Position numbers and translations under genes: made by a program. This document shows, one piece after another, positions 6,952 to 63,872 of a stretch of 64,000 nucleotides of DNA; the first letter of the stretch is position 1; every line of letters starts with the position of its first letter. Origin of the DNA: Stegostoma tigrinum (Eukaryota); NCBI RefSeq assembly GCF_030684315.1, contig NC_081355.1, forward strand, positions 82,298,924-82,362,923, in the 5' to 3' direction. The notes below the pieces were generated by a model. It searched no databases and had not been told where the DNA came from. It saw nothing but the letters and a program-made list of their open reading frames with translations.

Positions 6952-7156
6952 GTATGCAATTTTCATTTTTTTTTAAAGCATACTGTAATTATCAAACTAT
7001 TCCATCTTCCTCAAAGTCCAAAATACTATTATTTTTTGTTGTGGTTTCTTGTTCTGTTTACTATACAATGTAAGAAGTATTTAGATGTGCACTTGTGATA
7101 CCAAGGTATGTGAGGCTTTGAGACAAGCGCTAGAAAATGGGATTGGAATTATTAGA

Positions 7157-8281
7157 AAACAAAGTGTGGAGCTGGATGAACACAGCAGGCCAAGCAGCAT
7201 CTTAGGAGCACAAAAGCTGACGGTTCAGGCCTAGACCCTTTATCGGAAAAGGGGGATGGGGAGAGGGTTCTGAAATAAATAGAGGAAGCCGCAACGGGTA
7301 CAGCGGATGCAGTATACCACATTGGCAGATGTGCAGCATCCCCACCCTTGTCTGCCTTCCAGAGAGACCATTCTCTCCAGGACTCCCTTGTCCGTTCCAC
7401 ACTCCCCTCCAATCCCACCACCCCTGGCACTTTTCCCTGCAATGGCAGGAAGTGCTAAACTTGCCCCCACACCCCCTCCCTCACCCACATCCCAGGCCCC
7501 AAGATGACTTTCCACATCAAGCAGATGTTCACCTGCACATCTGCCAATGTGGTATACTGCATCTGCTGTACCCGGTGTGGCTTCATCTACATTGGGGAAA
7601 CCAGTGGATGCTTGGGGACCACATTGCAGAACCCCTCCGCTCGGTTCGCAATAAACAACTGCACCTCCCAGTCGTGAACCATTTCAACTCCCCCTCTCGT
7701 TCCTCAGACAACATGTCCATCATGGGCCTCCTGCAGTGCCACAATGATGCCACCCGAACATTGCAGGAACAGCAACTCATATTCCGTATGAGAACCCTGC
7801 AGCCCAATGGTAGCAATGTGGATTTCACAATCTCCCCTCCCCTTACTGCATCCCAAAACCAGCCCAGCTCATCCCTGCCTCCCTAACCTGTTCTTCTTCT
7901 CGCCTATCCCACCCTCCCACCTCAAGCCACACTCCCATTTCCTACCTACTAACCCGATTCTGCCCCCTTGACCTCTCCATCCTCCCCAGACGGACCTATC
8001 CCCTCCCTACCTCCCCACCTATACTCACCTCTACAGTCTCCATCCCCGCCCCTTTAACTTGTCTGTGTCCTCTCCACCTATCTTCTCCTCTATCCATCTT
8101 TGGTCCGCCTCACCCCTCTCCCTATTTATTTCAGAACCCTCTCCCCATCCCCCTTTTCTGATGAAGGGTCGAGGCCCGAAATGTCAGCTTTTGTGCTCCT
8201 GAAATGCAGCTTGGCCTGCTGTGTACATCCAGCTCCACACTTTGTTATCTCGGATTCTCCAGCATCTGCAGTTCCCACTAG
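7157..8281 (+). mobile_element. PLE copy with an internally deleted, inverted 5' arm (7157-7336), inserted in a CR1 tail
   Basis: GIY-YIG region (ANVVYCI-C-RCG-IYIGET) on +, hammerhead motif 8158-8185, tail ...gcatctgcagttcccacta; imperfect TSD gattggaattattaga (7141-7156) / gattgtaattagtaga (8286-8301). Confidence 0.9.
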
Positions 8282-11447: not shown

Positions 11448-12200
11448 CATGTTTTTAGATGTTCATGATCACAGTTAAGTAGTCGCTGGTTTGTAAGCAT
11501 TTTTCTAGTAGATTGTTGAGTCTGTTAAGACGTAGTAGCTTAAGCATGATACAGTTAGTTAAATAAAGAAAGTACAGTTAGTTCTGCTATAACGCATGTT
11601 TCATTAATGCGAATTGTCGGAATCCTTTTGGCCAATGGCCATGAGACAGCTACCCATGACATCAGATGATCATTGCCCCTTGCCTGCCCTCAACTATGGA
11701 TTTGTCAATTCTTTCCAAAACACACTGATAATCGGGTGCATTTGGTACAAGATAATTTGTTGATGCTAGTCTTGGGCTTCGTGGCCTTTGTGTTTTTCAT
11801 AATTCTTCCCTGTGTTTACATATGCTGGAGTTTTGGTAAGTTTGCACTGGTGTAAAAGTGGTCGCATGAAATCTCATGCTAAACAGTAAATACTACGACA
11901 GTTCAGTTATGAAGAGACCCCAGTATTCAACATCACAAACACATGGGATATCAATTGTAACTTGGGCAAGGGCCAGCATGGCACGGGTGAATACCTAATT
12001 GGAGGGATTTCATCATGAAGTTCGGGGCCAGATCAGCACGGATTAGGAGATCACCCTATTCGAAGATTTTGGAAAAGAGGGGAAGGTTGAAGATAGGCTT
12101 TGAGTTTATAAGGAGGAAGAGGTCAATGGTTCGTTTGAAGAAATGGGCATTGATGGCAGATTTGAAGAAAATATCAGTGAGAACACATAATGTAACTGCA

Positions 12201-12435
12201 ACAAAAATAGATATTGCTGGAAAAGCTCAGCAGGTCTGGCAGCATCTGTGAAGAGAAATTAGAGTTAATGTTTTGGGGCTGGTGATCATTCCTCAGAACT
12301 GTTCTGTGGAAGGGTAACTGGACCCGAAGCGTTAACTCTGATTTCTCTTCACAGATGCTGCCAGACTTGCTGAATTTTTCCAGTAATTTCTGTTTTTGTT
12401 TCAGATTTACAGCATCTGCAGTTCTTTTGGTTTTT
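12201..12435. mobile_element. Palindromic non-autonomous PLE mini-element, family 2 (head-to-head hammerhead-like motifs)
   Basis: Inverted arms centred at 12300 (cagaac-t-gttctg); extra tail on the right arm only; perfect 14-bp TSD ataatgtaactgca (12187-12200 / 12436-12449). Confidence 0.85.
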
Positions 12436-14866
12436 ATAATGTAACTGCAGTGTGCATTCAGATTCACAGAACCTCAGATCACACTGTAACATTGAAATTT
12501 CACCAACCTGTACGATTAAAGGAGAGGCACATTATTACATTGTGTGGAGCATTACTAAATACTTTTATCTGAACATCTTTACATAATATGTTCATTTTAA
12601 AATTTTACTAATGCCTGCCAGAAACAGTTGCTTTTGCATTAATTTAGTTTTCGCAGACACAAGGGACAAAGTCCAGATTTGGGCTTGTTGGGGTTTCCTG
12701 CTTCAAGGGCAATTTCTGTTTGCCTTACCAGAATTTCTCCTTCCTATTTCTACAAGTTAATAGTAAATAAAACAATTAGGAAATCCAAATCTAAATGCAT
12801 ATTAAACATCAAGCACTTATAATACATTTCTATTTTTACAAATGTCAAATCGAAGCCTCGTAACGTGTTTTATAGAGCAGGAAGATGAGGGACCATGTAA
12901 AAGGATACCGACATCTCCAAAATGTATTTTTCTCTATTAAGCAACATTGACTCACAAAAGTGTTCAAAAATGTAATGCCTCCCACACTTTCCTGTTTTCT
13001 CTTGCAATGTTTAGGAACACTTATGTTTCCTATTGTCAGATTCTCAGAAGTACTTTAACATGTTTCACATCTGTAAAAACGGGTTAGTGTTTCCATTTCA
13101 CTTGGCAATCAAATAGCTTTTTTTTCTGAAGTTCAGAAGCAAGCTTGTCCTTTTTAGAAACCATGTAATGTATGTGCATTATTGTCCCAGAAATTTGCTC
13201 CTTTAAACCTCCAGTGTGACAGGTAGATGTAATTGTTCCAATGAACAGGAAGTTGTTCACCATGTCGATACAGGCTCAAAGATCAAAGTGCAATGTTCAA
13301 CACTCAAAGTGGGCATTTTTAAAGAAAGCAACCAAATGTCTAACAGCCACCCCCACAACAAGGTTGGCACTTAAATATATTTTTCTTCCTTGAGGAGTCC
13401 TCTTGAGATTTACTCAAGATGTCCTTTTTGATATGTAGGTGTTTCATTCTCATTATCTCCTTAGTTAGGTGATCCAGTCCCATTGTAATAATGTCTTTAG
13501 TATTTGCATTGATATATGGGAGATTCAGAATCATTCAGGATCAGAATTTGAAAAATTTATCAGAATCCTTAGTTATCATCTCTGCTGCATTAAACCTACA
13601 GCGATAACACATGAGAAAAGCTTAATTTCCAAGACACTACAGTGGTTAAATTGTCACAAGATAGCAGGTGTGGTAAGCAATAAAATTTTCCTGAAAATAC
13701 TTTTATGCCCAAGAGATCATTACACTGCACGAAACACACTGTAAATGGATTCATGAGGTCATAGCTAAATGACTGCAGGTTTGTCTCTGCATTGTCACTG
13801 CATCTCCATTACTTCATAGTACGAAAGATGTTTTGAGATGTAATAACGCAAAAATACAAATTGGTATGAAATAACATTTTCATTATAATTTATCCAATTG
13901 ACAATGTTCCTTACAATAGCATCCATTGTATTTTCTTGTATACAGTAGCTCTTAAACTTCTGCAGCCTTAATCTATCTAAATGATCTGGAGGAAGGTATA
14001 GATGGTCTGATTAGCATGTTTGCAGATGACACTAAGATTGGTGGAGTAGCAGATGGTGATGGGAATTTTGGAGAATGCAGCAGAATATAGATAGATTGGA
14101 GAGTTGGCAGGTCATGTTGGAGTCATAGTTGGAGAAATGGCAGATGGAGCTCAATCCAGGCAAATGTGAGGTGATGCATTTTGGAAGATCCAATTCAAGA
14201 GTGAACTATACGGTAAATGGAAACGCCCTGGGGAAGATTGATACACAGAGAGAACTGGGTGTTCAGGTCCATTCTACCCTAAAGGTGGCAATGCAGGTGG
14301 ATAGACTGGTCAAGAAGGCATATGGCATGCTTTCATTCATCGGACGGGGTATTGAGTACAACAGTTGGCAGGTCATATTACAGTTGTATAGGACTTTGGT
14401 TCGGCCACATCTGGAGTACTGTGTACAGTTGTGGTCGCCACATTACCAGAAGGATGTGGATGCTTTGGAAAGGGTGCAGAGGAGGTTCACCAGGATGTTG
14501 CCTGGTATGGAGGGCACTAGCTATGAAGAAAAATTGAGTAGATTACAATTACTTACATTAGAAAGATGGAGATTGAGGGGGTCCTGATTGAGGTCTACAA
14601 AATCATGAGAAGTATAGACAGGGTGGATGGCAAGAAGCTTTTTCCCAGAGTGGGGGATTCAATTACTAGGGGTCACGATTTCAAGGTGAGGGAGGAAACG
14701 TTTAAGGGAGATATGCGTGGAAAGATCTTTATGCAGTGGTTGGTGGGTGCCTGGAACACGTTGCCGGCGGAGATGGGAAAGGCGGCATGAAAGTGTCATT
14801 TAAGATGTATCTAGACAGATACATGAATGGGCAGGGGGCAGAGGGATACAGATCCTTGGAAAATAC

Positions 14867-20266: not shown

Positions 20267-20426
20267 CAGAGATAATAGGAACTGCAGATGCTGGAGAATC
20301 CAAGACAACAAGGTGTAGAGCTGGATAAACACAGCCTTCCTGCTCCTAAGATGCTGCTAAGCTTTCCTGCTCCTAAGATGCTGCTTGGCCTGCTGTGTTC
20401 ATCCAGCTCTACACCTTGTTGTCTCT
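20267..20426. mobile_element. Palindromic PLE pLTR mini-element, family 1, with internal tandem duplication
   Basis: Tail on the left arm; TSD aaaatcctac(c/t)tt (20254-20266 / 20427-20439). Confidence 0.85.
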
Positions 20427-23129: not shown

Positions 23130-26100
23130 AAAGACTTGGGTATAGCATATTCACTTCCCTCACTTAAGTTATGAATATACACGTTGCAAATAATTGTGGC
23201 CCCAGCAGTGATCCCTGTGGCACAACACGAGCTGCTGGTTGCCATCCCAAAAATGCCCACCTTATCCCAACTCTGTCTTCTGTTAGATTGCCAGCTCTAC
23301 AAGCTAATAGTCTACTTCCAACATCATGGGTTCTTTTCTCATTAAGTAACCTATGTGTGGCACCTTATCAAATACCTTATGAAAATTCATCTATGTATCA
23401 TCCACCACTTCCTCTTTATATAACCTGATTGTTACCCCCTCAAAGAATTCTTCATAAATTCATGCTAATTCTGCATGATCATACTATGCATTTCTAAATG
23501 CTTTGTGATTTCATTCTTTATAATAAACTCAAGCATTTTTCCAATAACAGACATCAAGCTAATTGGTCAGTTGTTGCCTGTGTTTTGTTTGTCTCCTTTC
23601 TTTTTTAAATAAAAATATTTTATTGGCAGTTTTCCAGTCCTCTGGGACTTATCTAGAATCTAAGGACTTCTATAAGATTGCTATTCCTGTAGCTACTTCC
23701 TTTAATATTCTGGGATGCATTCCGTCAGGTTCAGGGACTGAGTATTCTTTATGAACACAGCAGGCCAAGCAGCAACTTAGGAGCAGGAAAACTGATGTTT
23801 TGGGCCTAGACCCTTCATCAGAAATGGGGGAGGGGAAGAGGGTTCTGAAATAAATAGGGAGAGAAGGGGAGGCGGATCGAAGATGGAAAGAGGATAATAT
23901 AAGTGGAGAGGAGACAGACAAGTTAAAAAGGTGGGGATGGAGCCAGTGAAGGTGAGTGTAGGTGGGGAAGAATGGAGGAGATAGGTCAGTCCGGAGAGGA
24001 CGGACAGGTCAAGGGGGCAGGATGAGGTTAACAGGTAGGAAATGGGGGTGCAGCTTGAGGTGGGAGAAAGTGATAGATGAGAGGAAGTACAACTTAGGGA
24101 GGCGGGGATGAGCTAGGCCGGTTTTGTGATGTGGTAGGGGGAGGGGAGATTTTGAAGCTTGTGAAATCCACATTGATCCCATTAGGCTGCAGGGTTCCCA
24201 AGTGGAATATGAGTTGCTGTTCCTGCAACCTTTGGGTGGCATCATGCCCACCGGCCTGACCAGTCCCCCTCGACTGACACCCTCATCTGCTTAGCCAAAC
24301 TCATCCTCACCCTCAACAACCTCTCTTTCAATTCCTCCCACTTCCTACAGACAAAGGGGGTGGGCATGGGTACCTGCATGGGCCCAAGCTATGCCTACCT
24401 CTTTGTAGGTTACATGGAACAATCCCTCTTTTACACCTACACTGGCCCTAAACCCCACCTCTTCCTCTGTTACATTGATGACTGTATCGGCACCGCCTCG
24501 TGCTCCCACGAGGAGCTCGAACAGTTCATCCACTTCACCAACACCTTTCACCCCAACCTCAAGTTCACCTGGACCATCTCTAACACCTCCCTCACCTTCC
24601 TGGACCTCTCTATCTCCATCTCGGGCAACCACCTAGAAACCTACATCCATTTCAAGCCCACTGACTCCCATAGCTACCTAGAACACACCTGCTTCCAAAT
24701 ACATTCCTGCAAAAATTCCACCCCCTATTCCCAATTACTTCGCCTCTGCCACACCTGCTCCCAGGATGAGGCATTCCATTCCCGTACATCTCAGATGTCC
24801 TTGTTTTTCAAGGACCGCAACTTCCCCCCCCTCAGTTGTCGAGAACGCCCTCGACCGTGTTTCCCACATTTCCTGCAACTCATCCCTCACAATCCCACAC
24901 TGTCCCTACAATAACAACCAAAAAAAATCCCCCTCGTCCTCACATACCCCTCCACCAACCTCCGGATCCAACGCATCATTCTCCGACACTTCCGCCATCT
25001 GCAATCCAACCGCACCATCAAAGACACTTTTCCCTCCTCACCCTTGTCTGCTTTCCAGAGGAACCATTCTCCCCGTGACTCCCTTGTCCGCTCTACACTC
25101 CCTTCCAGCGCCAACACACCTGGCATTTTTCCCTGCAACTGCAGGAAGTGCTACACTTGTCCCCACACCTCCTCCCTCACCCCCATCCCACGCCCCAAGA
25201 AGACTTTCCACATCTAGCAGAGGTTCACCTGCACATCTGCCAATGTGGTATACTGCATCCGCTGTTCCCGTTGTGGCCTCCTCTACATTGTGGAAACCAA
25301 GGGGAGGTTTGGGGACCGCTTTGCAGAACACCTCCGCTTGGCTTGCAATAAACAACTGTACCTCCCAGTCATGAACCATTTCAACGACCCCTCCATTCGT
25401 CAGATGACATGTCAATCCTTGGCCTCCTGCAGTGCCACAACGATGCCACCTGAAGGTTGCAGGAACAGCAACTGTTATTCTGCTTGGGAACCCTGCAGTC
25501 CAATGGTGTCAATGTGGATTTCACAAGCTTCAAATTCTCCCCTCCCCCTATCACATCACAAACCAGTCTAGCTCTGCCCTGCCTCCCTAGGCTGTTCTTC
25601 CTCTCATCTATCCTCTCCTCCCACCTCAACCCACACCCCTATTTCTTACCTACTAACCTCATCCCGCCCCCTTGACCTCTCCGTCCTCTCTGGACTGACC
25701 TATCCCCTCCCTACCTCCCCACCTACGCTCACCTTTACTGGCTCTATCCCCGCCTCTTTAACTTGTCTGTCTCCTCTCCACTTATCTTCTCTATCCATCT
25801 TCAATCCACCTCACCCCTCCCCCCTCCCCCTATTTATTTCAGAACCCACTTCCTCTCCCCCATTTCTGATGAAGGGTCTAGGTCCGAAACGTCAGCTTTT
25901 GTGCTCCTGAGATGCTGCTTGGCCTGCTGTGTTCATCCAGCTCCACACTTTGTTATCTCAGATTCTCTAGCATCTGCAGTTTCTATTATCACTGAGTAGT
26001 CTTTGCCCTGTTTTAGTATACCTAGCTGTTTTTTCTCTGGTGATAATGATTTGAATTTATTTCTTGTGCTATTATGCTTTGAATATTTAGTCATTTTTGA

Positions 26101-26400: not shown

Positions 26401-27402
26401 TCTCTTGGTCACCTAGTCATTATATCTGTATGATGGCCAGAATATCAATGATTTCAATTTGATCAATCACACCAATTTTTGAGTGATTATTTCAACTCTG
26501 AGCTTATTTGGTGGTGGTAACTCACGGGGTCCAGATTGCAGTGGCAATATGCACTTTATATGCATGTGGTCATCGTTCGCTATGGGTGGTGATGGTGTAG
26601 ATTTCAACTTTCTTTCCATCACATTGCTCACCAGGAATCCCTGTTGCTCTTACTGCCTGTTATTGACGTGTTTTGGAAGGGTTTGTAGCTTGTTATTTCA
26701 ACCTAATGGTCCACACTGTGACTGTACCTGCCTTAGCCATAATGTCCTAGAATGGGACCCAAACCTGATACTTTCACAAACAAGAATGCTGTCCACTGTG
26801 CAATAAGACCTTCTTCATGGTCTTATATCCTCTCTGCAAATGCTCTCATACCTCTGGTATCAATCCATTGTTATCTTTGGTATTGTGTTTTCTATTTTAG
26901 CCTTGATCTAATCATAATTCCTCAGCAGAACCATTATCTTAGGCCATCTTTGTCATTGGTACCTACATGGACTATGACAGCTGGATCATTCCCTCTCCTG
27001 CTCCACGTTCTTCCAGTCCCAAGACAATGCCTGTAACACTGAAATTGCGCAGGCATCACAACGTTTAGGACTCACATTTTGCAGTGCAGAAAACAATTTC
27101 TATCCATCTAACTTTGCTGCCACTGGCTACAACAACATCCCTTTGTATTTGCCCATGTGCCATGGTGTTGTGGTCAGTTTGTTCTTCTTCCCTTGAGACC
27201 CTGCTCTCATTCAGACAAACTGAAAGAACTTTAAACCTTTTGGACAAATGGAAAGCCTGAGTCTCATCCAGTGCTATGATCTGAAGCTCCATACTTGCTT
27301 CACTCATAGTCACATAGTTCCTGTTGCTGATCACAGACAAAATCTGACATATCTAGCTTAAAGTTTATGACTACCCCCTGAAACAAGATATCCTCTCTGA
27401 TA

Positions 27403-27578
27403 ACGCAGTGTGGAGCTAGAGGAACACAGCAGACCAGGCAGCATCAGAGGAGCAGGAATGCTGACAGTTTGGATAAGAACCCTCGGCAGCTTTCCTGCTC
27501 TTCTGATGCTGCCTGGCCTGCTGTGTTCCTCCAGCTCCACACCTTGTTACCTTAGGCTCCAGTATTGGCAGTTCTTAC
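27403..27578. mobile_element. Palindromic PLE pLTR mini-element, family 1
   Basis: Inverted arms gtggagct-gaggaacacagcag-ccaggcagcatcaga; TSD tatcct(c/g)tctgata (27389-27402 / 27579-27592). Confidence 0.8.
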
Positions 27579-29629
27579 TATCCTGTCTGATATATAACAT
27601 TCATAAAGTTCACGCTTCAGCTCATCAAATCTGAGCTGAAGTTCCTTGAGTGCAGATATTTTCTGCAGATGTGGTAGCTAAGGACCACACTGGTGCAACC
27701 AACCATCTGCCCTGCCATCTTTATTCTGTTTTATTTTGGAATGGATTTCAAGTTTGGAAATATCATTCAATGATTATCTGTGCATGTATTAGAGAGTTAA
27801 TTAGTTAAGCTGTGCATGTAATACATTTCTACATCTCCCACTGAGACCATCACTATTTTAATTACAATTTTCTCAATTTTTGCTTTTGAAATGTGAGTTG
27901 AGATTAAGATTTGAACTTTGAACAGCTGCTAGTTTCAGAAGGAGAAGAGAACAAAGGCAGAAGCTGTCTGTTTGGGATCTGGTCCAGAAAATAATATAAC
28001 TTAATTATTGATCTAAGAGTGCTGTAGATGAATTGGCACTGAGTGTTGCTATGCTCAGGGTTGGCAGCTGATTGGATGTTGAATTGGTCAAGTAAAGGAG
28101 CTAAACTGTCAACCACAGAGACAGTTGATGAAAAGGAAACAAAAACAGGGAACTATTTTTGACTGGATTTTGCAGGAGGCGGAGAGATTTTGGGAAGCTT
28201 CTGGCCTGGCTACTCTGTTTTGCTTTCTCTAGTTTTCTGTTCAGCTATTGAATTGTTGAATGTTCTAAGTAAAGAATCCCAGTCTGTAAGTAATAAATAT
28301 TCATAGCAGCCTACTGAAATTGTTTGCACCGACCAATAACTTCGGAATTTAAACAAGATCTGCAATTCCATGTGCCTGTGAATAACTCATTATCCAAGGA
28401 TTTCACAATTGTTGGCATTCATCATTTGAAACTGTTTAGTTGAACTGGTAAATTATCGTTCTTCTATCTCCTTTCAATTTATACTTTAACTGTATCAATG
28501 TGTCAGTCTGTCTGCGGGAGAATGCGAGTTATTGTCTAAGACGTTTGGGTTTAGATTGTAGATATTAATCAGATTACATTCATTAATCTTTGTTCTGCTA
28601 AAATTACATTATTAATCATAAAAATCTTAGTATCCAAGACCTTTTTTTTAAAGATTGGTTCAGAACAACTGAAGGCCTTTGAATGTTTTAATTTTGCTGT
28701 GTTGTGACTCCAATGATAGTGAGGTTCATCTGGTTTAGCTCGCTATCCCAGTGTTGTAACACTCTCCATGACCCTTTTAAGCTACTGACTCATTTAAATC
28801 CTTAAAAGGTATCAACAAATCACTGACCGGCTTTCCTAATATAAACCACTGGGATTTTGCATTAGCCCTTAATGCCTCCAGCCCTCTCTTTTTGAGCATC
28901 CCTTATTCTGTTAAAATAAAAGAACTCGCTCCCTTGCAGTCAGATTGCCACTCCAATCCTGAGTTGGAGGTCAGCTGAATAGTTATTGAGGAGTTAAATT
29001 AGGCTTTTAATTCCCTAACATTTCCTGCATAACTATTAGCTGAGGTGGAGTATTCCAAACTCTCCATCTTTAAGAGGTTCTTTTTGCAGGTTCCAATTGC
29101 TGGGGAATTTCCCATTAGAATCTTCAATTTCCCAGACAATATCCACAAATTCTGCTGTTTCTGGGATCCCATGGTGTCTTGATGTTACATCTGCTTCAAT
29201 AAGTTCTCCAGCACAGCATTCCTTGGAGAGTGTTCTCTGGCCTGTTGTACCATTTTTGTGTTCTTGCAGAACTTCAGCTATTCTGTAACCAATTCTAGCC
29301 CGTACTCCAGGCAGACAAAAAGTACAATGTGGCTTTTAGTAGTGCAGGCTAACTTCAGTGCTGCTAGTCATAAAGAAACTCTCACCATCTCTAACATGAA
29401 CAGCAATTTGATCCCTGTGCCTGATTTCAGGAGCTATCCATCTTACTCTCCGTTCTATTTAGAATATAGAAGATGCAAACAATGTTGTTTGGGAATTATG
29501 GATAACTCATGAGAGTGAGTGGTAATAATTTGAATTTCTTTGACTAGAAAAATAAATGTTAGCAATGAACAGGTTAAAGTGACCAGATACATTGTATACT
29601 TTTCCTGAAGTTCTTAATTTTAGGGCTTA

Positions 29630-31092: not shown

Positions 31093-31252
31093 TGGTCAGA
31101 AGTCACACGACGTCAGGTTAGAGTTCAACAGGTTTATTTGAAATCACAAGCTTTTGAAGTGCTGACTTTTTGTCAGGTGAAGACTTGGGTTATAACCTAA
31201 TGTTGTGTGACTTCTGACATGGTCCACCCCAGTCCAACAGCAGTACCACCAC
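31093..31252. mobile_element. Short inverted-arm element with a degenerate hammerhead-like motif (putative PLE family 3)
   Basis: gtcagaagtcacacgac...ggtta and its reverse complement taacctaatgttgtgtgacttctgac; minus strand CTGACAA...AAAAGCTT. Confidence 0.5.
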
Positions 31253-32740: not shown

Positions 32741-32894
32741 GTAGAAAAACAATCCATCAGCTTTTCTTTCCATTGTTGCCAAAAGCCAGATAAGAAATCT
32801 CAAGGTGTTTCTAGGTTGATATACAATGTCATGTTGCACTGAGTCATTTTGATCAGGATGATTATAGGATCAAACCCACTACTGAGGTAACAAG

Positions 32895-33150
32895 TAAAAA
32901 CAGAAACTGCGAGAGAAATGCAACAGGTCTGGCAACATCTGTGGAGAGCCTTCTGAAAAAGGTCCTGTTAATTCTTGTTTCTCTCTCCAAAACTACTGAA
33001 GAAACTGAGCAAGTCAGGAGAGAGAAGCAAGGATTAACGTGACCATTTGTCAAAAGGTTCTCCACAGATGTTGCCAGACCTGCTGAGTTTCTTGAGCAAT
33101 TTCTGATCTTGTTTGTTTCAGATCTCCAGTGACCGCAGTTCTTTTTTTTA
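32895..33150. mobile_element. Degenerate palindromic PLE mini-element, family 2
   Basis: caggtctggcaacatctgtggaga / tctccacagatgttgccagacctg arms; tail like 12201-12435. Confidence 0.7.
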
Positions 33151-34031: not shown

Positions 34032-35404
34032 GATAGGCCATCAAATCTCATTTAACTTCACAAGGATTACAATTCTTTATTACAGTTACAATCACATTTC
34101 TTCACTTTTGATGACCTGTCCTTGAAATTCCTCTGGTGAGCTGTTCTGTTATGGACTACATCAACGAGTATTCCAATTCGGATAAAATACCTTCCTTTCC
34201 TGAGTCTACATTTCCACTGGACTCCAAAACTACTTATTCTCAAGCATAACAAAACAGGTCTCCACCACTTTCTCACGGGAAACTAGGGACAGACAGTGAT
34301 GCCAGTATCCTGCAACTGAATAAAAAAAAACTATTCTCATTAATGACAGCTAGCTCCATGTGTCGGTGCTGCCCCTGAGTTTTCCTTCAAGCTCCAGTCT
34401 TGTTCAATTGCATCAAGCAGATATTGCTTGTAGTCCCTTTTAGCTGCATTGAAGTGCCAATGCTCATAGGCTTTTTCTAAGATCCTCACAGCTCCCTTTA
34501 AGACACAGCCATTGACCTCCCACATTCTCAGCTACCCTGTGAATCCTGACTGCAAAACTTAATGACCCTGTAATTCCCAGAACTTTGGTGTTCTACCAGC
34601 ATAAAGCCACCCCATTGGTCTTGACTCTTCACTGAGTCCTCTACACAGAATCCGTATAATCCATCTGCCCTCTCAGCAATGAAGCTAACTGCAGCATTTT
34701 GTAACATAGGGTTTGCCTTTCTCACCCCTTCATTTCACCGCTTGTATTCACTTCAAATGTCTCTTCTGTGAAACTCTCCCACCACATCCACCCTGCCCCC
34801 TCCACCCACACCAATGATCCTGTCCAGCCTGTTGAAAAATTTGCAATATTGCAGTAAACCCCTCACCTATTGTTGGGCAGAGCTGAATGTTACTAGCATT
34901 TTGTGTCACCCTTGTTTATGAAAGAACAATAAAGATTATGTTCCCATCAAAAGCCGGAAGAGGATTTCATCACATTATGCATATCCAAAACATAGCACAT
35001 TGGCGTGAAATTAGCTTTATAAACTCATTCTCAAAGGATGGTGTATTGTCAGAAATGCAACCATGATTGTCCAGTTTGTGTGAGGACCTGCAATAAATGC
35101 ATACTTTAGTCGACCTGTCAGAACTAGTGACATCACTATTAAGGGAGAGAGACTGGGAAGGTTAGAAAATTTACTACACAATTAACTGATCAAAAAATAA
35201 AGAATTCAAACATCAAGCAATAATTTATCACCAACTTTACAATGAAAAGTCCAAAATAACATGATGATGGATGAAAGAAGAAAAGCACTCACAGTGAAGA
35301 CATAGATTGCCAATAGATTGTGTCTGCCCATATTGTGGTGACAAAACCCTAATATTTGAAAATACTTGAAACTTCAGTTTTTAAATAGCCAGGGAAGTTT
35401 GAGA

Positions 35405-35644
35405 TAAAAACTGAAAGAACTGTGGACACCGTCAGTTAGAAACAAAAACTGACATTGCTGGAAAAGCTCAGCAGGCCTGGCAGCATCTGTGAAGAAAAGA
35501 TCAGAGATAACATTTCGGGTCTGGTGAGCCTTCCTGAGAATTCACTGTTCTCACGAAAGGTCACTGGACTTGAAACGTTAACTTTGATTTCTTTTTTCAC
35601 AGATGTTGCCAGACCTGCTGAGCTTTGCCAGCAATGTCAGTTTT
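35405..35644. mobile_element. Palindromic PLE mini-element, family 2
   Basis: aaaactgacattgctgg...gcatctgtgaa and its reverse complement; hammerhead-like aaggtcactggacttGAAAcgtt near 35550-35580. Confidence 0.8.
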
Positions 35645-36265: not shown

Positions 36266-36283
36266 GTAATGTAACCAACAATT

Positions 36284-36412
36284 TCTGAAGAAGGGTCTTG
36301 ACACGAAATGTTAAACTTTCCTGCTCCTCTGATGCTGCTTGGCCTGCTGTGTTCATCCAGCTTCACACTGTGTTATCTCAGATTCTCCAGCATCGGCAGT
36401 TCCTACTATCTC
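36284..36412 (+). mobile_element. Solo PLE hammerhead mini-insertion (129 bp)
   Basis: Starts tCTGAAGAagggtcttgacacGAAA; perfect 14-bp TSD tgtaaccaacaatt (36270-36283 / 36413-36426). Confidence 0.88.
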
Positions 36413-36559
36413 TGTAACCAACAATTCATTGACAATAGATAATAGCATGTACGTCCTGTTTGCCACATTTACTTCCGTACTTTGATTTTGTAATTCAGGT
36501 CATGCACTTTCAAATCAGTGGCACTGCAGTTGTGTTGTGATACCCATGTATTACCTAAC

Positions 36560-49664: not shown

Positions 49665-50353
49665 ACTGCTAACGTTTTGTGGTAATGTTTCAGAGGCCTT
49701 GGTAGATCACGGGGCAGACCTTACAGTACAATCCTGCCAGTGCCTCAAGATTATCATTATACACTGAAGGTTCTACAGTTTGCTTCTATTCTTCCACACC
49801 TGGATAGATTTAGATGGCAAAAGTCAGGTACAAGAGCATATGAGGATACTGATGTTAATCCAAAACTTATTGCTGCAGGAGAACTGTTGCAAAGCTGAAG
49901 GATACTGATAGATTAAGTATTCCCTGAAATGCCTCTGCCATCCATTCTACTAATATTCTGTCCCTCAAACAGTAGACACATTACAAGACAACATAATATT
50001 TTGATGTTGTTGGATATAGCATGGTTCTTCAAGAGAGCCATCTAGTCTTCAAACAGTGCTATGACATCCTTTACCTGAATAGGTAGGTAGAACTCAGTTT
50101 AACTTTTAATATGAATTTGACATCTTTGGCAATGAATTACTTCCTCCGTAATACATTGAAATGTTGGTATAACAATTTGGAGATTTTATTGATATAGCCT
50201 TCAAAGCGTTTTGTTATAATATTGCTGCAAAAGTAGATTATGTATAAAAAGAAACAACTCCCAAAGGTACAGAAGCCATTTGAAATGTTTGTCTGAATGG
50301 CTGTGAATAGGGAGACCAAATAGATTACATAGCAGGTTATACATGTTTTCAAG

Positions 50354-50449
50354 AGATAGCATGATGTAGAGCTGGATGAACACAGCAGCCAAGCAGCATC
50401 AGAGGAGCAGGAAGGCTGACGTTTCAGATTGAGACCCTACTTCAGAAAT
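50354..50449 (-). mobile_element. Solo PLE hammerhead mini-insertion (about 96 bp, tail-less)
   Basis: Ends at ...ctacttcagaaat (core on the - strand); TSD tacatgttttcaag (50340-50353 / 50454-50467). Confidence 0.8.
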
Positions 50450-53400
50450 AGGTTACATGTTTTCAAGTTGTGTTTCTGCAAATTACGTTCACTAGGATGG
50501 TTTGTGGCTGAAATGAAGGCAGAAACAGCTGAAAGAACAATCAGCCGCCACTCTTAAGTTGCCAACAGAGAAATAGAATTGAAATGCTACCAGAAGCTGA
50601 AATAACAAGACAGCAAAGGTCTGAAGATATATCTCTCAGTCAGACTTTCAGGCTTCACTGAAAATGTGCTCAGCTTCTGTCTGTAGCTTGAATAAGGATA
50701 TCATTAGTCAGGGCTGTGGGGGAATGCCCAAATAAAAACTAAATAAAATTCTGGAAATAATCAGCATGTCTGAAAACAGTGGTAGAAAAGGACATAGAGA
50801 TAATGGCAGAATTTAATGTTCCCCCAGAGCTGAGTTGCCCAGCCGAAATGTGTAACGGGGTGGAAATTCTAACACCTTCCTGACCCACCTCACCTCAATT
50901 AAATTCAGAATGGAAAGGATCAAGGACGGTGCTCCCCCTCAGATACCATTTGAGGCCTTGAGGTAACCACTTAAGGGCCTTGTCCCACCATCACTGCTGG
51001 TATACTCATGGTCAGCAACGCCACACTGTGTGGGCAACATGCCAGCTAAACACTAGTCAATGTGCCTATGGCCTGGTGTGGAGGAAAATCTGTCCTTCTT
51101 GGGCATCCCGGGTCTATGGAGTGCCATCCCAGAACCAAGGGCTACCAATATGGCATGCCCTTGCCTACCTCTTAAAGGAAACCCCAAGGCCCCACCTTCA
51201 CTTGGCCCTTGCTGACCGACCCCAATGATTATGCCTGTCCTACCTTTCCTTCAGGGATCCAGCAATGACCCTGCTGCAAAGTACCTTACACTTACCCCCG
51301 TGCAGTACCAGTAGCATCTGCCACTGATGCAAAGAAAAGAGCAAAACTGAGTCATAAGGAGGGCTGGATTTTACGTTCGATATTCTGTTAGTTTGAAGTA
51401 GAGCAGGAAAGTGAAACCCAGCGACTGACTTTATTGCCACCTGGCTACTCATGCCCCGAACTGCCTGAAATTTTATGGGGGCTGGGAAGATGCCAAGGTT
51501 CCTACACCCCCACCCCTCCACTATCCCTCCCTTTAAGGCTCTTACATCACCAATTACTGGCCACTTAGAGATCTTATCTTATTTTGTGCGGTATTGTACA
51601 TGCAGCAGGAGCCGCTGCACACCAGGAAGAATGTCCAGCAGCTTTAACTGCCTGGACTGGTGTAATCTGCAGAGCTTGTCATGCAAGGGCTGACCCCCTT
51701 GTGGTACTAAAAAGCCCTATGGAACCTCACCATCTCGCTTTCAGATCTACACCTATTTAACCATTCCACCACTACCCCTACCCTCTTGAACCCAGAGCAC
51801 ACCTCCCTCACTGAGACCCCAGGCCCTGGGCCTACCTGGGATCTTTGGCATACTGGAATTCCCTGTGTTCCTGGCATCAGTTACCACTCCCACCTGGCAG
51901 TTCAGGGCATTCAATAGGCTAACAGCTCTCTAAGACAGGATGTCCTCCTAAGATAGAGGCAAAATGCAATTTGTACTGCTCCCAATGATACATTCCCCAA
52001 AGCATCTTCAGCTGCAAGTGCAAGAACCATTGCACCCTGTGAAATCCAACCCATTGAGTAATTTTCAGCACAGAAGGCTATCCCGCCCATCAAGTCAATG
52101 ACAACTCACAGTGGAATAACCCAGTTAGTTCCACTCCCATAGACAATCGACCCCAGTTACCAGGATGTGTTACTCCATTCATGTTCCTATCAAATGTCCT
52201 TTTAAAATCATTGTTTCTGCTTTCACTTCTACCAAGGGCAGCACAGTCTAGGTATTATCACACTGAATAATAAAAATCCTCTTCATATACTTACTGTACC
52301 TCATGTCCAAAACCTTATGTCTACGTCACCTAGTGGCATTATTAGCTTGTGGCTCATAGATTTAGGTTTATGTTTTATTGTCATGAGTACATGAGTACAA
52401 TGACAAGTATACAAAGTCACCATTCTTTGGCACCATTTTATGATGTAAAACACAGGATTAACAATTGAAGCAGAAATAAAACGAACAACCAAAAGATAAG
52501 GAAAAGTCGAGATTATGCCCAGTCTCTGCCAGGAGTCCTCACCATCAGAAAAGCAAAGCCACAAAGCCCATCCCTCAGTCTGTGAGCTCTCAGGATGCTC
52601 CGAGTCCCCATGTGCCACCGCAGCTGGAATGCCATCACCTCCACCGTCAGGTATCGATGCCGAGTCATGGCCTAGAGCCATGAGCACCGTCACCGCTGGA
52701 ACAGTGTCACCATTCTTCGGCATCATCTTGCCTCCACTGATGTCCACCATGAGTCTGCACTGGGCAGATCTTAGCAATGCAGCCTCCGCTGAAGCAGCTA
52801 GGACCCGGACTGGGCTCTGAAATGCAGGAAATGTGCAACAAAAACAAATAAAAAGCTTGAAATATAGAATATATCTATATCTGTATGAAATATAGCTATG
52901 TGAGATAGTGAAGAGAAGGGAAGAGTTAATATCTTGGACATAGTCCCTTGACCGGAATTAAAAACTAAAAGACAAGAAACTAATTTAATGGGATTGTGGC
53001 GGGGGTAGGGTTAAGTGTAAGACACGGACTACAGATATCCCAGTCACAGAGAGAAAATTCAAGAATTTAATGACCTACAAACCACATAATAGACAAGTGG
53101 AGAATTGTTAAATGGTATAAAAGATCATCTCAGTGAGGCAATGAAAATGCATTGAAAAGACAAAAGTACAAACAGCTAGGAACATGAAAAGGCATGGGAG
53201 AGGCATGAAGAGAAAAAAGGACATAGTTAAACAAAAGGAGAAAAAACGAGTCAGAGACACAGTCTGGAATGGAACCAAGAAAATGAAACATGTTTCAGGC
53301 TCCCCTTCCTGCCTTGTTTTCAGTATTTGAGTTGATGTTTCATAGTGGAATAGTCAAAAGGTGCTGCTTGACAACTGCCCTGTGATCATTTAAATGTTAT

Positions 53401-54013: not shown

Positions 54014-54327
54014 AGACCTACCGCTCCTTCAATCCTGCTGATGAGGTGTTGGCTAACTTGTTACTTCTGCTTTGGCCTCCTCTGAAGTACTCCCCGTCAA
54101 TTGGGAATCCAGCTCATCAGTCAAGCTAAGATCTAGGAAAGAAAACTCAAACTTCTGGGTCCTGTGACTGAGCCTTCCTGCTCAAATAAACATGCCCTGT
54201 CAATATCTGGGTCTTTTGATGACAGTTAGGGCTTTCTACCAAAATGAATGAGTTTAATTTCAAAACAAACAGGAATTTCTTTGGACTCATTTTAAAGCAT
54301 GTTCTCAAACTGGAAAACATGTTGGGA

Positions 54328-54447
54328 CAGTAAGAACTGCAGATGATGGAATCAGAGATAACACAATGTGGAGCTGGAAGAATGCACCAGGCCAGGCAGC
54401 ATCAGAGGAGCAGGAAAGTTGACGTTTCGGGGTGGGACCCTTCTTCA
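54328..54447 (-). mobile_element. Solo PLE hammerhead mini-insertion (120 bp)
   Basis: Minus strand begins CTGAAGAagggtcccaccccGAAAcgtc; TSD gaaaac(a/g)tgttggga (54313-54327 / 54448-54462). Confidence 0.85.
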
Positions 54448-54519
54448 GAAAACGTGTTGGGATATTCCGTTTAATGATAATGAATCCTGCACAGCCAATG
54501 GAACTCTGAAAGTAGATTT

Positions 54520-55445: not shown

Positions 55446-56119
55446 ATTTTAGTTAGCTGATTATATATTAAATTCCCTTTAGGAATAATAGTTGCATCAT
55501 TGACTTAAATGGCAAGAAAATAATTTGCAATATTCACCTGAATTTTCATTATGTGACCTGATGGGTTTGGTTCCACCTAAGAGCATGAAGTTAGATAATG
55601 ATTTTGGGATTATTTTTAATTTTTGAAAAGGTATTAAAAGATAAGGTGTTAATTGTGACCACTGTTGTGCTTCATTTCCATGATTGGTCATTGAACATAT
55701 GCTGTTGGCATAAAACATCAGAAGGCCATATTTGAATATCAGGTGGGGAGGATTATGCACATCTGCAGCTCAGCTGATGCATCCTCATTGACAAAAGAAA
55801 ATGTAGGATTGCCTAACTGGTGTACCATATTCTGACTTGAGAGCAGAGAAGCAAGAAGCATATCCCGCAATGTTCTTTAGTTTAGCTTACAGTTCTCTCT
55901 GCCTATTAACACTATCATTGCAGCAGTAGTTGCCATGCTGATTAGTTGATGAATGGAGTTTGGGCAGGGAAAAGAACAAAGATGAACACGTACTCTTACG
56001 TAGCTCTGGGAAACTTAATCATAGAATTGAAGAATGATACTGAAAGGAGCAGTTATCATATCTGTGATGTCTAAAGAACAATTGAAGTTATTCCCTGAAA
56101 GAAACTCACTGGGAAGTTT

Positions 56120-56325
56120 CAGAGGTAGTAGGAACAGCAGATGCTGGAGAATCTGAGATAACAAGATGTAGAACTGGATGAACACAGCAGGCCAAGCAGC
56201 ATCAGAGGAGCAGGAAGACTGACGTTTGGTTCAAAAGAAGGTTCTAGGCCCAAAACATCAGCCTTCCTGCTCCTATGATGCTGCTTGGCCTGCTGTGTTC
56301 ATCCAGCTCTACATCTTGTTATCTA
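56120..56325. mobile_element. Palindromic PLE pLTR mini-element, family 1
   Basis: Inverted arms meet within the hammerhead region (about 56220-56260); tail on the left arm; imperfect TSD actgggaagttt / actgagaaggtt. Confidence 0.85.
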
Positions 56326-57046: not shown

Positions 57047-57181
57047 TGACCGTCTGATGAAGGGTCTAAGCCCGAAACGTCAGCTTTTGTGCTCCCGAGA
57101 TGCTGCTTGGCCTGCTGTGTTCATCCAGCCTCACATTTTATTATCTTGGAATTCTCCAGCATCTGCAGTTCCCATTATCTC
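57047..57181 (+). mobile_element. Solo PLE hammerhead mini-insertion (135 bp)
   Basis: CTGATGAagggtctaagcccGAAAcgtc at 57054-57081; perfect 14-bp TSD ggatcttgcaggaa (57033-57046 / 57182-57195). Confidence 0.9.
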
Positions 57182-57485
57182 GGATCTTGCAGGAAGTCTG
57201 GCACAGGGCTTGCATAACTAAGTGAATACTAAAATTGCACTTGGGGACTGGAAAAAAAGCAGATGTACTCCTATCTTTTCCAAAAGTAGGAAAGCGATCT
57301 GGAAAACCACAGGGCAATGAATTTGATGTCCATTGTATGTTAAGCTATGGAAACCCCTGTTAAAGATAAGGTCATTGTACATCTGGATTGAAATAAAATT
57401 ATAAAGAAAAGCCATGTGAGGTTTGAAAATTAAGCAACATAGTTTGTCTGAGTAGAGTAATGGAAAGTGGGGCAGTGAAATGTTA

Positions 57486-60433
57486 ATAAAATGTGAGGCT
57501 GGATGAACACAGCAGGCCAAGCAGCATCTCAGGAGCACAAAAGCTGATGTTTCGGGCCTGGACCCTTCATCAGAGAGGGGGATGGGGAGAGGGAACTGGA
57601 ATAAATAGGGAGAGAGGGGGAGGCGGACCGAAGATGGAGAGTAAAGAAGATAGGTGGAGAGAGTATAGGTGGGGAGGTAGGGAGGGGATAGGTCAGTCCA
57701 GGGAAGACGGACAGGTCAAGGAGGTGGGATGAGGTTAGTAGGTAGATGGGGGTGCGGCTTGGGGTGGGAGGAAGGGATGGGTGAGAGGAAGAATCGGTTA
57801 GGGAGGCAAAGACAGGTTGGACTGGTTTTGGGATGCAGTGGGTGGGGGGGAAGAGCTGGGCTGGTTGTGTGGTGCAGTGGTGGGGGGGGTGACGAACTGG
57901 GCTGGTTTAGGGATGCAGTAGGGGAAGGGGAGATTTTGAAACTGGTGAAGTCCACATTGATACCATTAGGCTGCAGGGTTCCCAGGCGGAATATGAGTTG
58001 CTGTTCCTGCAACCTTCGGGTGGCATCATTGTGGCAGTGCAGGAGGCCCATGATGGACATGTCATCTAGAGAATGGGAGGGGGAGTGGAAATGGTTTGCG
58101 ACTGGGAGGTGCAGTTGTTTATTGGGAATCGAGCGTAGGTGTTCTGCAAAGCGGTCTCCAAGCCTCCGCTTGGTTTCCCCAATGTAGAGGAAGCCACACC
58201 GGGTACAGTGGATGCAGTATACCACATTGGCAGATGTGCAGGTGAACCTCTGCTTAATGTGGAATGTCATCTTAGGGCCTGGGATAGGGGTGAGGGAGGA
58301 GGTGTGGGGGCAAGTGTAGCATTTCCTGCAGTTGCAGGGGAAGGTGCCGGGTGTGGTGGGGTTGGAGGGCAGTGTGGAGCGAACAAGGGAGTCATGGAGA
58401 GAGTGGTCTCTCCGGAAAGCAGACAGGGGTGGGGATGGAAAAATCTCTTGGGTGGTGGGGTCGGATTGTAAATGGCGAAAGTGTCGGAGGATGATGCGTT
58501 GTGACCAGAGGTTGGTAGGGTGGTGTGTGAGAACGAGGGGGATCCTCTTTGGGCGGTTGTGGCGGGGGCGGGGTGTGAGGGATGTGTTGCGGGAAATATG
58601 GGAGACGCGGTCAAGGGCGTTCTCGATCACTGTGGGGGGAAAGTTGCGGTCCTTGAAGAACTTGGACATCTGGGATGTGCGGGAGTGGAATGTCTTATCA
58701 TGGGAGCAGATGCGGCGGAGGCGGAGGAATTGGGATTAGGGGATGGAATTTTTGCAGGAGGGTGGGTGGGAGGAGGTGTATTCTAGGTAGCTGTGGGAGT
58801 CGGTGGGCTTGAAATGGACATCAGTTACAAGCTGGTTGCCTGAGATGGAGACTGAGAGGTCCAGGAAGGTGAGGGATGTGCTGGAGATGGCCCAGGTGAA
58901 CTGAAGGTTGGGGTGGAAGGTGTTGGTGAAGTGGATGAACAGTTCATCCACTTCACCAACACCTTCCACCCCAACCTTCAGTTCACCTGGGCCATCTCCA
59001 GCACATCCCTCACCTTCCTGGACCTCTCAGTCTCCATCTCAGGCAACCAGCTTGTAACTGATGTCCATTTCAAGCCCACCGACTCCCACAGCTACCTAGA
59101 ATACACCTCCTCCCACCCACCCTCCTGCAAAAATTCCATCCCCTATTCCCAATTCCTCCACCTCCGCCGCATCTGCTCCCACGATAAGACATGCCACTCC
59201 CACACATCCCAGATGTCCAAGTTCTTTAAGGACCGCAACGTTCCCCCCACAGTGATCGAGAACGCCCTTGACCGCGTCTCCCGTATTTCCCGCAACACAT
59301 CCCTCACACCCCGCCCCCGCCACAACCGCCCAAAGAGGATCCCCCTCGTTCTCACACACCACCCTACCAACCTCCGGGTACAACGCATCATCCTCCGACA
59401 CTTTCGCCATTTACAATCCGACCCCACCACCCAAGACATTTTTCCATCCCCACCCCTGTCAGCTTTCCGGAGAGACCACTCTCTCCGTGACTCCCTTGTT
59501 CGCTCCACACTGCCCTCCAACCCCACCACACCCGGCACCTTCCCCTGCAACAACAGGAAATGCTACACTTGCCCCCACACCTCCTCCCTCACCCCTATCC
59601 CAGGCCCCAAGATGACATTCCACATTAAGCAGAGGTTCACCTGCACATCTGCCAATGTGGTATACTGCATCCACTGTACCCGGTGCGGCTTCCTCTACAT
59701 TGGGGAAACCAAGCGGAGGCTTGGAGACCGCTTTGCAGAACACCTCCGCTCAGTTCGCAACAAACAACTGCACCTCCCAGTCGCAAACCATTTCCACTCC
59801 CCCTCCCATTCTCTAGATGACATGTCCATCATGGGCCTCCTGCACTGCCACAATGATGCCACCCGAAGGTTGCAGGAACAGCAACTCATATTCCGCCTGG
59901 GAACCCTGCAGCCTAATGGTATCAATGTGGACTTCACCAGTTTCAAAATCTCCCCTTCCCCTACTGCATCCCTAAACCAACCCATTTCGTCCCCTCCCCC
60001 CAATGCACCACACAACCAGCCCAGCTCTTTCCCCCCCCACCCACTGCATCCCAAAACCAGTCCAACCTGTCTCTGCCTCCCTAACCGGTTCTTCCTCTCA
60101 CCCATCCCTTCCTCCCACCCCAAACCGCACCCCCATCTACCTACTAACCTCATCCCACCTCCTTGACCTGTCCATCTTCCCTGGACTGACCTATCCCCTC
60201 CCTACCTCCCCACCTATACTCTCTCCACCTATCTTCTTTACTCTCTATCTTCGGTCCGCCTCCCCCTCTCTCCCTATTTATTCCAGTTCCCTCTCCCCAT
60301 CCCCCTCTGTGATGAAGGGTCCAGGCCCGAAACGTCAGCTTTTGTGCTCCTGAGATGCTGCTTGGCCTGCTGTGTTCATCCAACCTCACATTTTATTATC
60401 TTGGAATTCTCCAGCATCTGCAGTTCCCATTAT
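57486..60433. mobile_element. Fold-back (palindromic) young Neptune-type PLE insertion; arms 57486-58940 (-) and 58942-60433 (+)
   Basis: Mirror ORFs 57716..58669(-) and 58913..60166(+) encode the RT C-terminus, Cys linker and GIY-YIG; 1-nt spacer at 58941; perfect 13-bp TSD cagtgaaatgtta (57473-57485 / 60434-60446). Confidence 0.95.
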
Positions 60434-60994
60434 CAGTGAAATGTTACATGGTTTTAAAAAATCACTGAAACTGAAAGAAAATCTAAAACACAATTGTGAG
60501 ACCAGCCTCATATATAGTATAGAAACTTAGGCAATGCCAAGAAGAGAGGAAGAATGATTGGACACTAATAAATTGCAGATGCTGAGAAAAATAAGAAAAT
60601 ACACAATCAGGAGCCATTACATCAGGGGCTCAGCGGAAATTGTGTTAATGTCAAACAAAGTAGCCAAGAAAAGATTAAAAAGATGTGATCATTTATTGTG
60701 GAGTGAGAGGGGAAATGTGGTGATGTGAGTGATTGGGTCGTGCTACTGTGAAGAAGGAGAAGATAAAGGCCCAAGACTGATAGAAAGATTGAGTGGTGAC
60801 AGCTTGGAAAATGAATCGATGACTGACTAGAGCAAGGGAAATCATTCAGCATTGTGTCAACTCCACCTCCCAAAAAAATGGGTAAAGCTGAAAGAAGAAC
60901 AAAAGAAGAGTTCATAAAAGGAAGGCCTTGCCAATTTAGCTTACTCATTTTCTTTAATAGGATAACAAAGGATTTTGATAGTGCTAAGGCAGTA

Positions 60995-63320: not shown

Positions 63321-63548
63321 AACTGTATGTGCAGAGAGTATAATACCAGAAAATGAAAATATTTTATGTATTACTATACAAGCCAACAGTTAAACCATAA
63401 TACAGTGGAATACTGTGGACAGTTTAGGCCTCTCACCTAAGAAAAGGTATAATGGCATTGGAGACAATCCAGAAGACATTCTCTCTGATACCAGATATGA
63501 CTTATAACATCAATCAATGCAAATATCAAGGAACACCATAATTTTGCA

Positions 63549-63770
63549 GATAACAAAGTGTGGAGCTAGAGGAACACAGCAGGTCAGGCAGCATCAGTGG
63601 AACAGGAGAGCTGACGTTTCAGGTCGGGACCCTTATTCAGAAATTTCTGAAGAAAGGTCCCGATCCGAAATGTCAGCTTTCCTGTTCCTCTGATGCTGCC
63701 TGGCCTGCTGTGTTCCTCCATCTCCACACTTTGTTATCTCTGACTCCAGCATTTCCAGTTCTTGCTTTCT
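63549..63770. mobile_element. Palindromic PLE mini-element, family 1, with head-to-head hammerhead motifs
   Basis: Apex ttcagaaa|tttctgaa at 63643/63644; tail on the right arm; degenerate TSD caccataattttgca / cacaataactttgta. Confidence 0.88.
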
Positions 63771-63803
63771 CACAATAACTTTGTATACTTTATTCAATTT
63801 CAG

Positions 63804-63872
63804 GGAGAACCTGGGCTCCGTGGTGAGGTTGGTTTACCAGGGCCAGTAGGAAAAGGATTTCCAGGACCAAAG
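63804..63872 (+). CDS. COL28A1: Collagen XXVIII-like exon (GEPGLRGEVGLPGPVGKGFPGPK)
   Basis: ttcaatttcAG / GTaaat; 69 bp, phase 0. Confidence 0.85.

Follow-up and report, generated by a model that had tools for sequence, protein, structure and literature searches.

The window analysed here (the whole 64-kb stretch of DNA) contains a 225-base hairpin (arms plus tail) within an intron of a collagen-type gene. The element is placed in an intron because the exon downstream of it is one of nine Gly-X-Y exons on the plus strand; these are 69–72 nt long, span positions 4185–63872 and represent an interrupted collagen-type gene. The Pfam Collagen model gives only E = 0.051 on the 23-aa piece encoded by the nearest of these exons. 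The features of the locus are as follows:

63534..63547, no strand: left target-site duplication (TSD), worn, 13–14 bp, 11/13 match to 63771–63783
63548..63643, minus strand: tail-less arm, PLE pseudo-LTR (pLTR) from the ribozyme edge to the "short" 3′ end
63611..63643, minus strand: minimal type-I hammerhead motif of the left arm, core G8 mutated
63643..63644, no strand: apex, zero-loop junction, the central AT assignable to either arm
63644..63739, plus strand: tail-bearing arm, PLE pLTR in sense orientation
63644..63676, plus strand: minimal type-I hammerhead motif of the right arm, G10.1 mutated (numbering after PMC4209133)
63740..63772, plus strand: one-sided PLE "tail" of ~33 nt, aligned with the tails of 8 other copies
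63771..63784, no strand: right target-site duplication
63804..63872, plus strand: host collagen-type (Gly-X-Y) exon, 69 nt, 31 nt downstream of the insertion

The two arms (63548–63643 and 63644–63739) are 96 nt each and 90% complementary, with a spacer of 0 nt. Watson-Crick pairs form at 86 of the 96 positions, and a further four are G-U pairs on the plus strand. The first-pass annotation described arms of about 95 bp meeting at the 5′ edge of the hammerhead cores and proposed an RNAfold check. The arms do meet there, with the apex 3 nt short of the CTGA core in either arm, and the predicted RNA fold has −164.8 kcal/mol (z = −20.5; 0 of 200 shuffled sequences were equally stable). In parent copies ATTT precedes the core, which bears on the assignment of the central AT at the apex. 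The right arm alone extends into the tail. The target duplication (63534/63771) is borderline, i.e. 7 of 300 random flank pairs score as high. An Rfam search over the hairpin yielded miRNA matches only, of a generic hairpin type and with scores far below gathering.

The right-arm hammerhead motif has its core at 63647–63653, helix II at 63655–63666 and a predicted cut at 63674/63675. Either strand was previously said to carry one sense ribozyme motif plus its antisense; both motifs are present in the focal copy, but each breaks one conserved position (G8 to U on the left, G10.1 to A on the right). The core columns, compared in 20 arms from two families, are ≥90% conserved, with the bulged base and the G10.1–C11.1 pair. 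Helix II has 4 bp and helix I 2 bp, and the third helix I pair is unpaired in 16 of the 20 arms. A covariation test of helices I and II shows 80.7% of cells paired, yet 193 of 500 shuffles pair as well; thus covariation is not above that of shuffles. Rfam displays no hammerhead match in the whole window at E ≤ 1. The predicted cut is 31 nt downstream of the apex (63643/63644); cleavage thus cannot create that end. Reverse transcriptase, moving 3′ to 5′, would already have passed the whole motif at the apex, and cleavage or folding of the motif would therefore be a poor explanation of the stop.

The focal arm sequence matches ~20 further places in the window, including the ends of kilobase-long repeats. 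One of these is the end of a copy bearing the open reading frame 58937–59965 (343 aa). This frame has 71 longer homologues. Many of them carry the annotation RVT_1 and some that of GIY-YIG; among those named, the closest (65% identity) is from Chiloscyllium punctatum, which points to a genome of the shark type. The GIY-YIG score of the frame itself is 20.4 bits, just below the Pfam cut-off of 22.6, and a homologue with 46% identity passes the cut-offs for both RVT_1 and GIY-YIG. Pfam searches with four open reading frames of the window gave no match at E ≤ 0.001, and there is no full-length element within the 64-kb window. The terminal match to an RT/GIY-YIG element, together with the domain-bearing homologues, identifies the arms as the pLTR of an endonuclease-bearing (EN+) PLE. 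The terminal repeat of an element with RT and GIY-YIG, the one-sided 30–40-nt tail and the target-site duplication are the marks of an EN+ PLE. Judging by its RT motifs, the family may be Neptune-like. The arms of the focal palindrome are thus pLTRs of an RT/GIY-YIG family, flanked by a 13–14-bp duplication, and the feature is almost certainly a PLE insertion product, as had been proposed for these MITE-like structures. In total, 19 PLE insertions occupy ~12.3 kb of the window.

Other insertions in the window, with one or two arms, are:

12196..12437, no strand: mini-palindrome of family B (a second family, related to the focal one), ribozyme-edge apex, TSD 14/14
20267..20426, no strand: sister mini-palindrome, coreless, with an internal duplication, TSD 10/10
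27399..27585, no strand: sister mini-palindrome of the focal subfamily, CTGA box missing in both cores, TSD 12/13
35400..35644, no strand: second family-B mini-palindrome, apex at the ribozyme edge, junction differs
36281..36413, plus strand: single-arm pLTR and tail, from the ribozyme edge, TSD 14/14
50352..50458, minus strand: single-arm pLTR without tail, from the ribozyme edge, TSD 14/14
54323..54451, minus strand: single-arm pLTR and tail, from the ribozyme edge, TSD 14/15
56119..56325, no strand: sister mini-palindrome, tail on the left arm, asymmetric apex
57050..57182, plus strand: single-arm pLTR and tail of a young subfamily, 6 filler nt followed by a start 1 nt before the core, TSD 14/14
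57484..60435, no strand: 2.95-kb two-armed insertion, parent PLE family (RT thumb and GIY-YIG), perfect 13-bp TSD, tail on the right arm only

The insertions at 56119, 27399 and 20267 are palindromes of the focal family with one-sided tails, and each has a different apex. The first-pass annotation had these three as related structures with two hammerhead ends. The relationship holds, but two whole hammerhead cores are kept only in the focal copy, both of them mutated; the copy at 56119 has one degenerate core and its other arm ends ~20 nt short, that at 27399 is without CTGA, and that at 20267 is coreless. Its statement that all four have PLE-type duplications and tails is likewise correct for the one-sided tails and for the duplications of the focal copy, 27399 and 20267, but not for 56119, where the duplication (8/9) is not above chance (13 of 300 random pairs). 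At 20267–20426 there is an internal direct duplication of ~26 nt at the apex, which suggests template switching during joining.

The 2.95-kb insertion is a fold-back with arms that are 97% complementary and an apex on a short inverted repeat found in the parent. The mini-palindromes had been regarded as miniature forms of this fold-back; they share its architecture, but its subfamily is a different, younger one, and over the arm length its identity to the focal arm is 78%. Its left arm (57484–57574) is 96% complementary to the single-arm copy at 57053–57143, 340 nt away, and the two can form a further hairpin, although the two belong to separate insertion events of the young subfamily, with a TSD for each. 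The two family-B palindromes (12196 and 35400) have arms that meet 2–8 nt ahead of their cores, at different junctions. A palindrome of a third related family is found at 32889–33150; it differs in its apex region, contains an additional internal segment and shows no clearly recognisable hammerhead core. The long asymmetric two-armed insertions at 7146–8280 and 23751–25991 complete the size series. An inverted pair at 31095–31218 (26-nt arms, 72 nt apart, 88%) matched neither family A nor family B in the searches made and is possibly another decayed repeat.

Some features recur throughout. A tail is present on exactly one arm in 10/10 two-armed insertions, and the other arm ends at the short end in 8/8 of those with intact ends (0.5^8 = 0.004 if start sites are independent). 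Both the tail end and the short end occur on single-arm copies too. The apices of all seven mini-palindromes differ. Of the 13 elements tested, 8 have duplications that match exactly over 10 or more positions or at 12/13; those of 56119, 35400 and 32889 are not above chance, and those of the focal copy and 7146 are borderline.

The 5′ ends show a preferred position. The single-arm copies at 36281, 54323, 50352 and 57050, which have clear duplications, begin 1–4 nt before the core, and 5 of 16 family-A insertions, including the focal one, end there (p = 1e-5, assuming a 2% chance per insertion, a figure chosen after seeing the data). The ribozyme-edge 5′ stop is thus real and is common to single-arm and two-armed copies, not specific to palindromes. 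The first-pass annotation had staked its reading on apices that are not randomly placed, and the clustering of ends 1–4 nt before the core agrees with this.

Assembled contigs of four public runs were aligned to a single-arm reference (24840–26040); the counts cover part of the aligned contigs. Runs X1 and X2 are from the window's own organism (A), belong to one study and are possibly the source of the assembly, and runs X5 and X13 are from a second organism (B). The top 5′-side loose end in both X1 and X2 is at 25863, 3 nt before the core (at least 530 and at least 543 contigs); its flanks are unrelated and AT-rich (agreement 0.35). Short-end loose ends at 25957–25960 are found in at least 5856 contigs of X1. 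In X1 the two pLTR bins reach summed depths of 22.6 and 53.9 million, which are not copy numbers, vs. ≤5.3 million in 25 upstream bins. This excess from the ribozyme to the short end is smaller in organism B than in organism A, and the core-edge peak is absent among the best six loose-end rows for each of X5 and X13. The 15 joints listed, out of 346, include none that connects two arms head to head at the core edge. Head-to-tail returns of 95–97 nt do occur among the listed joints (at least 18 and at least 4 contigs).

The 25959→25865 joints (at least 18 contigs in X1, at least 16 in X2) are head-to-tail repeats of a 95-nt unit that reaches from the ribozyme edge to the short end. They lie elsewhere in the genome and are candidate retrozyme-like dimers of very small size, in which minimal ribozymes could pair. 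Opposite-strand joints 25957↔25990, from the short end to the tail end, are present in at least 6–7 contigs and are tail-to-tail junctions; they may stem from palindromes in tandem or from a copy inserted into the end of the element itself.

Several causes of the ribozyme-edge end were considered. YYANWYY is an initiator consensus. Older subfamilies have a YYANWYY match that includes the base 4 nt before the core (25862; 1623, 9180 and 23825 in parents); the young subfamily does not. The match gives a weak hint of an RNA start, and we lean slightly towards an RNA 5′ end as the cause of the hot spot. ATT-directed trimming as the sole cause was rejected, as the motif is missing in the young subfamily and in family B, which have the same end (1 and 2 insertions). 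Some arms (27399, 20267, 11210) were candidates for a start at the ribozyme cut; this was rejected, as they run 1–4 nt past it or a 4-nt microhomology explains them. There is no cut-site peak among the loose ends listed, and one joint record re-enters at 25894. A splice acceptor, as described for D. virilis in the available text of PMC4209133, was also rejected: no AG is present before helix I, the nearest being ~20 nt upstream.

Comparison of the arms bears on whether each palindrome was born anew. A 65-column block of 21 arms was used, with the truncated arms of 20267 and 23751 left out. The arms of the focal copy and those of 56119 are nearest or tied-nearest to their own partner, and those of 27399 are not nearest to each other; in the two arms of 20267, the last 33 columns contain a single difference. 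One state is common to both focal arms and is found in no other arm. The mean within-copy distance is 5.7 of 65 columns for three mini-palindromes vs. 9.0 for 13 same-group arms (p = 0.012). In the 10 pairs formed by five two-armed copies, 64 sites split by copy and two by arm type. This test had been proposed in the first-pass annotation, and its outcome favours repeated de novo birth, except that the focal copy and 27399 tie, 17 vs. 17, with one common arm-type site. In family B, within-copy differences (17/94 and 16/95) are no smaller than those between copies (14–21). The copy-wise grouping implies that palindromes arose separately in at least four subfamilies. They probably formed de novo rather than replicating as units. 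The focal copy and 27399, being of one subfamily, may descend from a common palindromic master, and likeness within a copy could also stem from later conversion between arms. An origin of the arms of the 23751–25991 insertion from two RNAs was rejected: they are each other's nearest relatives over ~500 nt (87.6%), despite differing at three subfamily sites.

The focal feature is best read, with a probability of about 0.6, as a short two-armed insertion of the hammerhead end of a PLE, made in one event in which both nicks primed on one RNA and the products were joined head to head. In a lizard PLE in vitro, according to the available text of PMC11167929, cleavage and extension affect both strands of the target, RT initiates at two internal positions separated by the length of the tail, and ribozyme cleavage is dispensable. 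By analogy, the PLE protein would nick both target strands, each of which would prime cDNA on a single RNA, one at the outer site (the tail arm) and the other at the inner site (the tail-less arm). Priming at both sites of the same RNA would explain one tail per insertion. The pile-up of 5′ ends, alike in single-arm and two-armed copies, may mean that cDNA synthesis runs off an RNA whose 5′ end coincides with the ribozyme edge, i.e. the start of helix I; such run-off would be expected, e.g. when priming falls on the 5′ pLTR of an mRNA. The two cDNA ends would then anneal by 0–4 nt of self-complementary sequence (a 2-nt microhomology in the focal copy), and repair would complete the palindrome. 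Junctions lie on self-complementary 2–4-mers or on a parental inverted repeat: AT in the focal copy, CATG at 24241 and a 4-bp repeat at 58941. Unequal arms may reflect later deletion.

The alternatives differ in where the second arm comes from. In a snap-back, tail-primed cDNA would halt at the ribozyme edge, fold back and copy itself to the short end, the fold of the ribozyme not being the block. This would likewise yield one tail per insertion and arms from a single template; of the seven copies with unequal arms, three (7146, 23751 and 12196) have the longer arm on the tail side, as it predicts, and junction palindromes are read as self-priming in the available text of PMC3846280. The 4-bp parental inverted repeat at the 2.95-kb apex fits snap-back as well as twin priming. 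The zero-loop apex of the focal copy speaks against it, however. The tail-less arm extends further 5′ in the other four of the seven (56119, 27399, 20267 and 35400), for which snap-back needs a later deletion, and the halt at the short end would have to be explained separately; single-arm copies show this end to be an independent terminus. The version in the first-pass annotation, in which RT stops at the ribozyme and snaps back, is not supported in that form, in view of these unequal copies, of an apex that lies beyond the whole motif, of single arms that end alike and of the lack of a loop. A de novo snap-back is unlikely for the focal copy, and twin priming is clearly favoured over it.

A self-propagating non-autonomous family appears less plausible still. 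Here the PLE protein would re-insert, as units, transcripts of a few master palindromes or of short single arms that have an RNA start of their own. The shared subfamily and the one common arm-type site of the focal copy and 27399 fit with this, as does the fact that 3/3 family-B-like copies in the window are palindromes. In organism A, the only one for which the edge peak is listed, depth (not a copy number) is far greater between the ribozyme and the short end than in the body, and head-to-tail joints of the 95-nt unit exist. Against it, an apex is shared by none of the seven mini-palindromes, copy-type sites outnumber arm-type sites 64 to two and at least four subfamilies formed their own palindromes; in addition, a 96-bp RNA hairpin would probably bury both RT start regions and the ribozymes. 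As for a DNA-transposon MITE whose termini only resemble PLE ends, the size and the near-perfect inverted arms are suggestive, but the focal palindrome is not a MITE because both arms are the pLTR, that is, the 3′ end, of an RT/GIY-YIG-encoding PLE. Symmetric terminal inverted repeats and uniform copies are not what is seen: the tail makes the termini asymmetric, apices vary, the 13–15-bp duplications are of variable sequence, and the arm sequence is also present on TSD-flanked single arms and on kilobase-long PLE fragments, which already contradicts a MITE. The probability of this reading is negligible.

A broader scheme would join several of these elements to twin priming. PLE RNA would start at the first base pair of the hammerhead, priming on the 5′ pLTR would give a "strong-stop"-like run-off cDNA, and twin priming would turn this into fixed-length palindromes; the short units would now be a self-propagating, ribozyme-bounded non-autonomous family, seeding introns with 100-bp hairpins that feed small-RNA silencing of the parent. 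Taken as a whole this scheme is quite improbable. For the focal copy, sequence analyses of the window found no evidence of function. We propose that it is now inert and that any dsRNA formed in the host intron is a by-product.

Such hairpins risk being labelled as MITEs or microRNA precursors in annotation, and are PLE insertion products. According to the available text of PMC11167929, second-strand completion and the formation of inverted ends are an open question for PLEs. Short copies exist in the thousands; their two fixed 3′ ends, their single preferred 5′ end and their readable junctions form a natural data set, which could decide between twin priming and snap-back and place the RNA 5′ end relative to the ribozyme.

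In the literature covered, which is mostly outside the subscription journals, no paper was found that reports fixed-length head-to-head PLE mini-elements or 5′ ends located at the edge of the ribozyme. A link to ancient vertebrate hairpin repeats was considered and has no support in the available text of PMC5753468. A metagenome scan for the head-to-head motif gave one match, which was rejected as a bacterial-looking chance hit without similarity to the window.

Among known systems, MITEs of TIR DNA transposons share with the focal element a short, non-coding sequence, inverted arms and a TSD; unlike them, it has retroelement-derived arms, asymmetric ends, a variable apex and single-arm relatives. 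Animal non-LTR retrozymes, as presented in the available text of bioRxiv 10.64898/2026.07.22.740005, are also short, non-coding, pLTR-derived and dispersed as monomers with a type-I hammerhead, and are present in a chondrichthyan. Retrozymes are head-to-tail repeats with intact ribozymes, whereas the window palindromes are head-to-head, TSD-flanked and have decayed motifs; the focal copy, with its two mutated type-I motifs, is a case in point.

The minimal type-I hammerheads of metazoan pLTRs, as described in the available text of PMC4209133, resemble the motifs found here in their core boxes, in the extra base between 9 and 10.1, in the palindromic 15.2–16.2, in the short helix I and in their location mostly on truncated PLEs. 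The same source describes dual minimal hammerheads on opposite strands, 100–700 bp apart, in Schistosoma. In contrast to those hammerheads, helix II has only 4 bp here, helix I only 2 bp, and both focal motifs are mutated. The Poseidon element of Anolis studied in vitro (PMC11167929) has, as proposed here, two RT start sites separated by the tail; these lie ~110–120 nt downstream of its ribozyme. The element cuts and extends both target strands, and its targets are AT-rich. The available text of that paper derives neither head-to-head products nor a fixed 5′ end.

Inverted pLTRs, one-sided tails and palindromic junctions of PLEs have already been described (PMC3846280, PMC8557442, PMC2377424, PMC8969392). 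In the available text of the first three of these reports, inverted-pLTR insertions of EN+ PLEs are like the focal element: a head-to-head 5′-truncated copy with a TSD, a palindromic junction and strong 5′ truncation. The published insertions also have a tail of 30–40 bp on one end only, as here. They differ in that the arms here are only ~95 and 130 nt and the 5′ ends cluster at one position, and the TSD is 13–15 bp vs. 8–10 bp in the rotifer PLE cases. The focal palindrome is thus a frequent and known kind of PLE insertion product, in which the ribozyme-edge 5′ end is the one notable detail.
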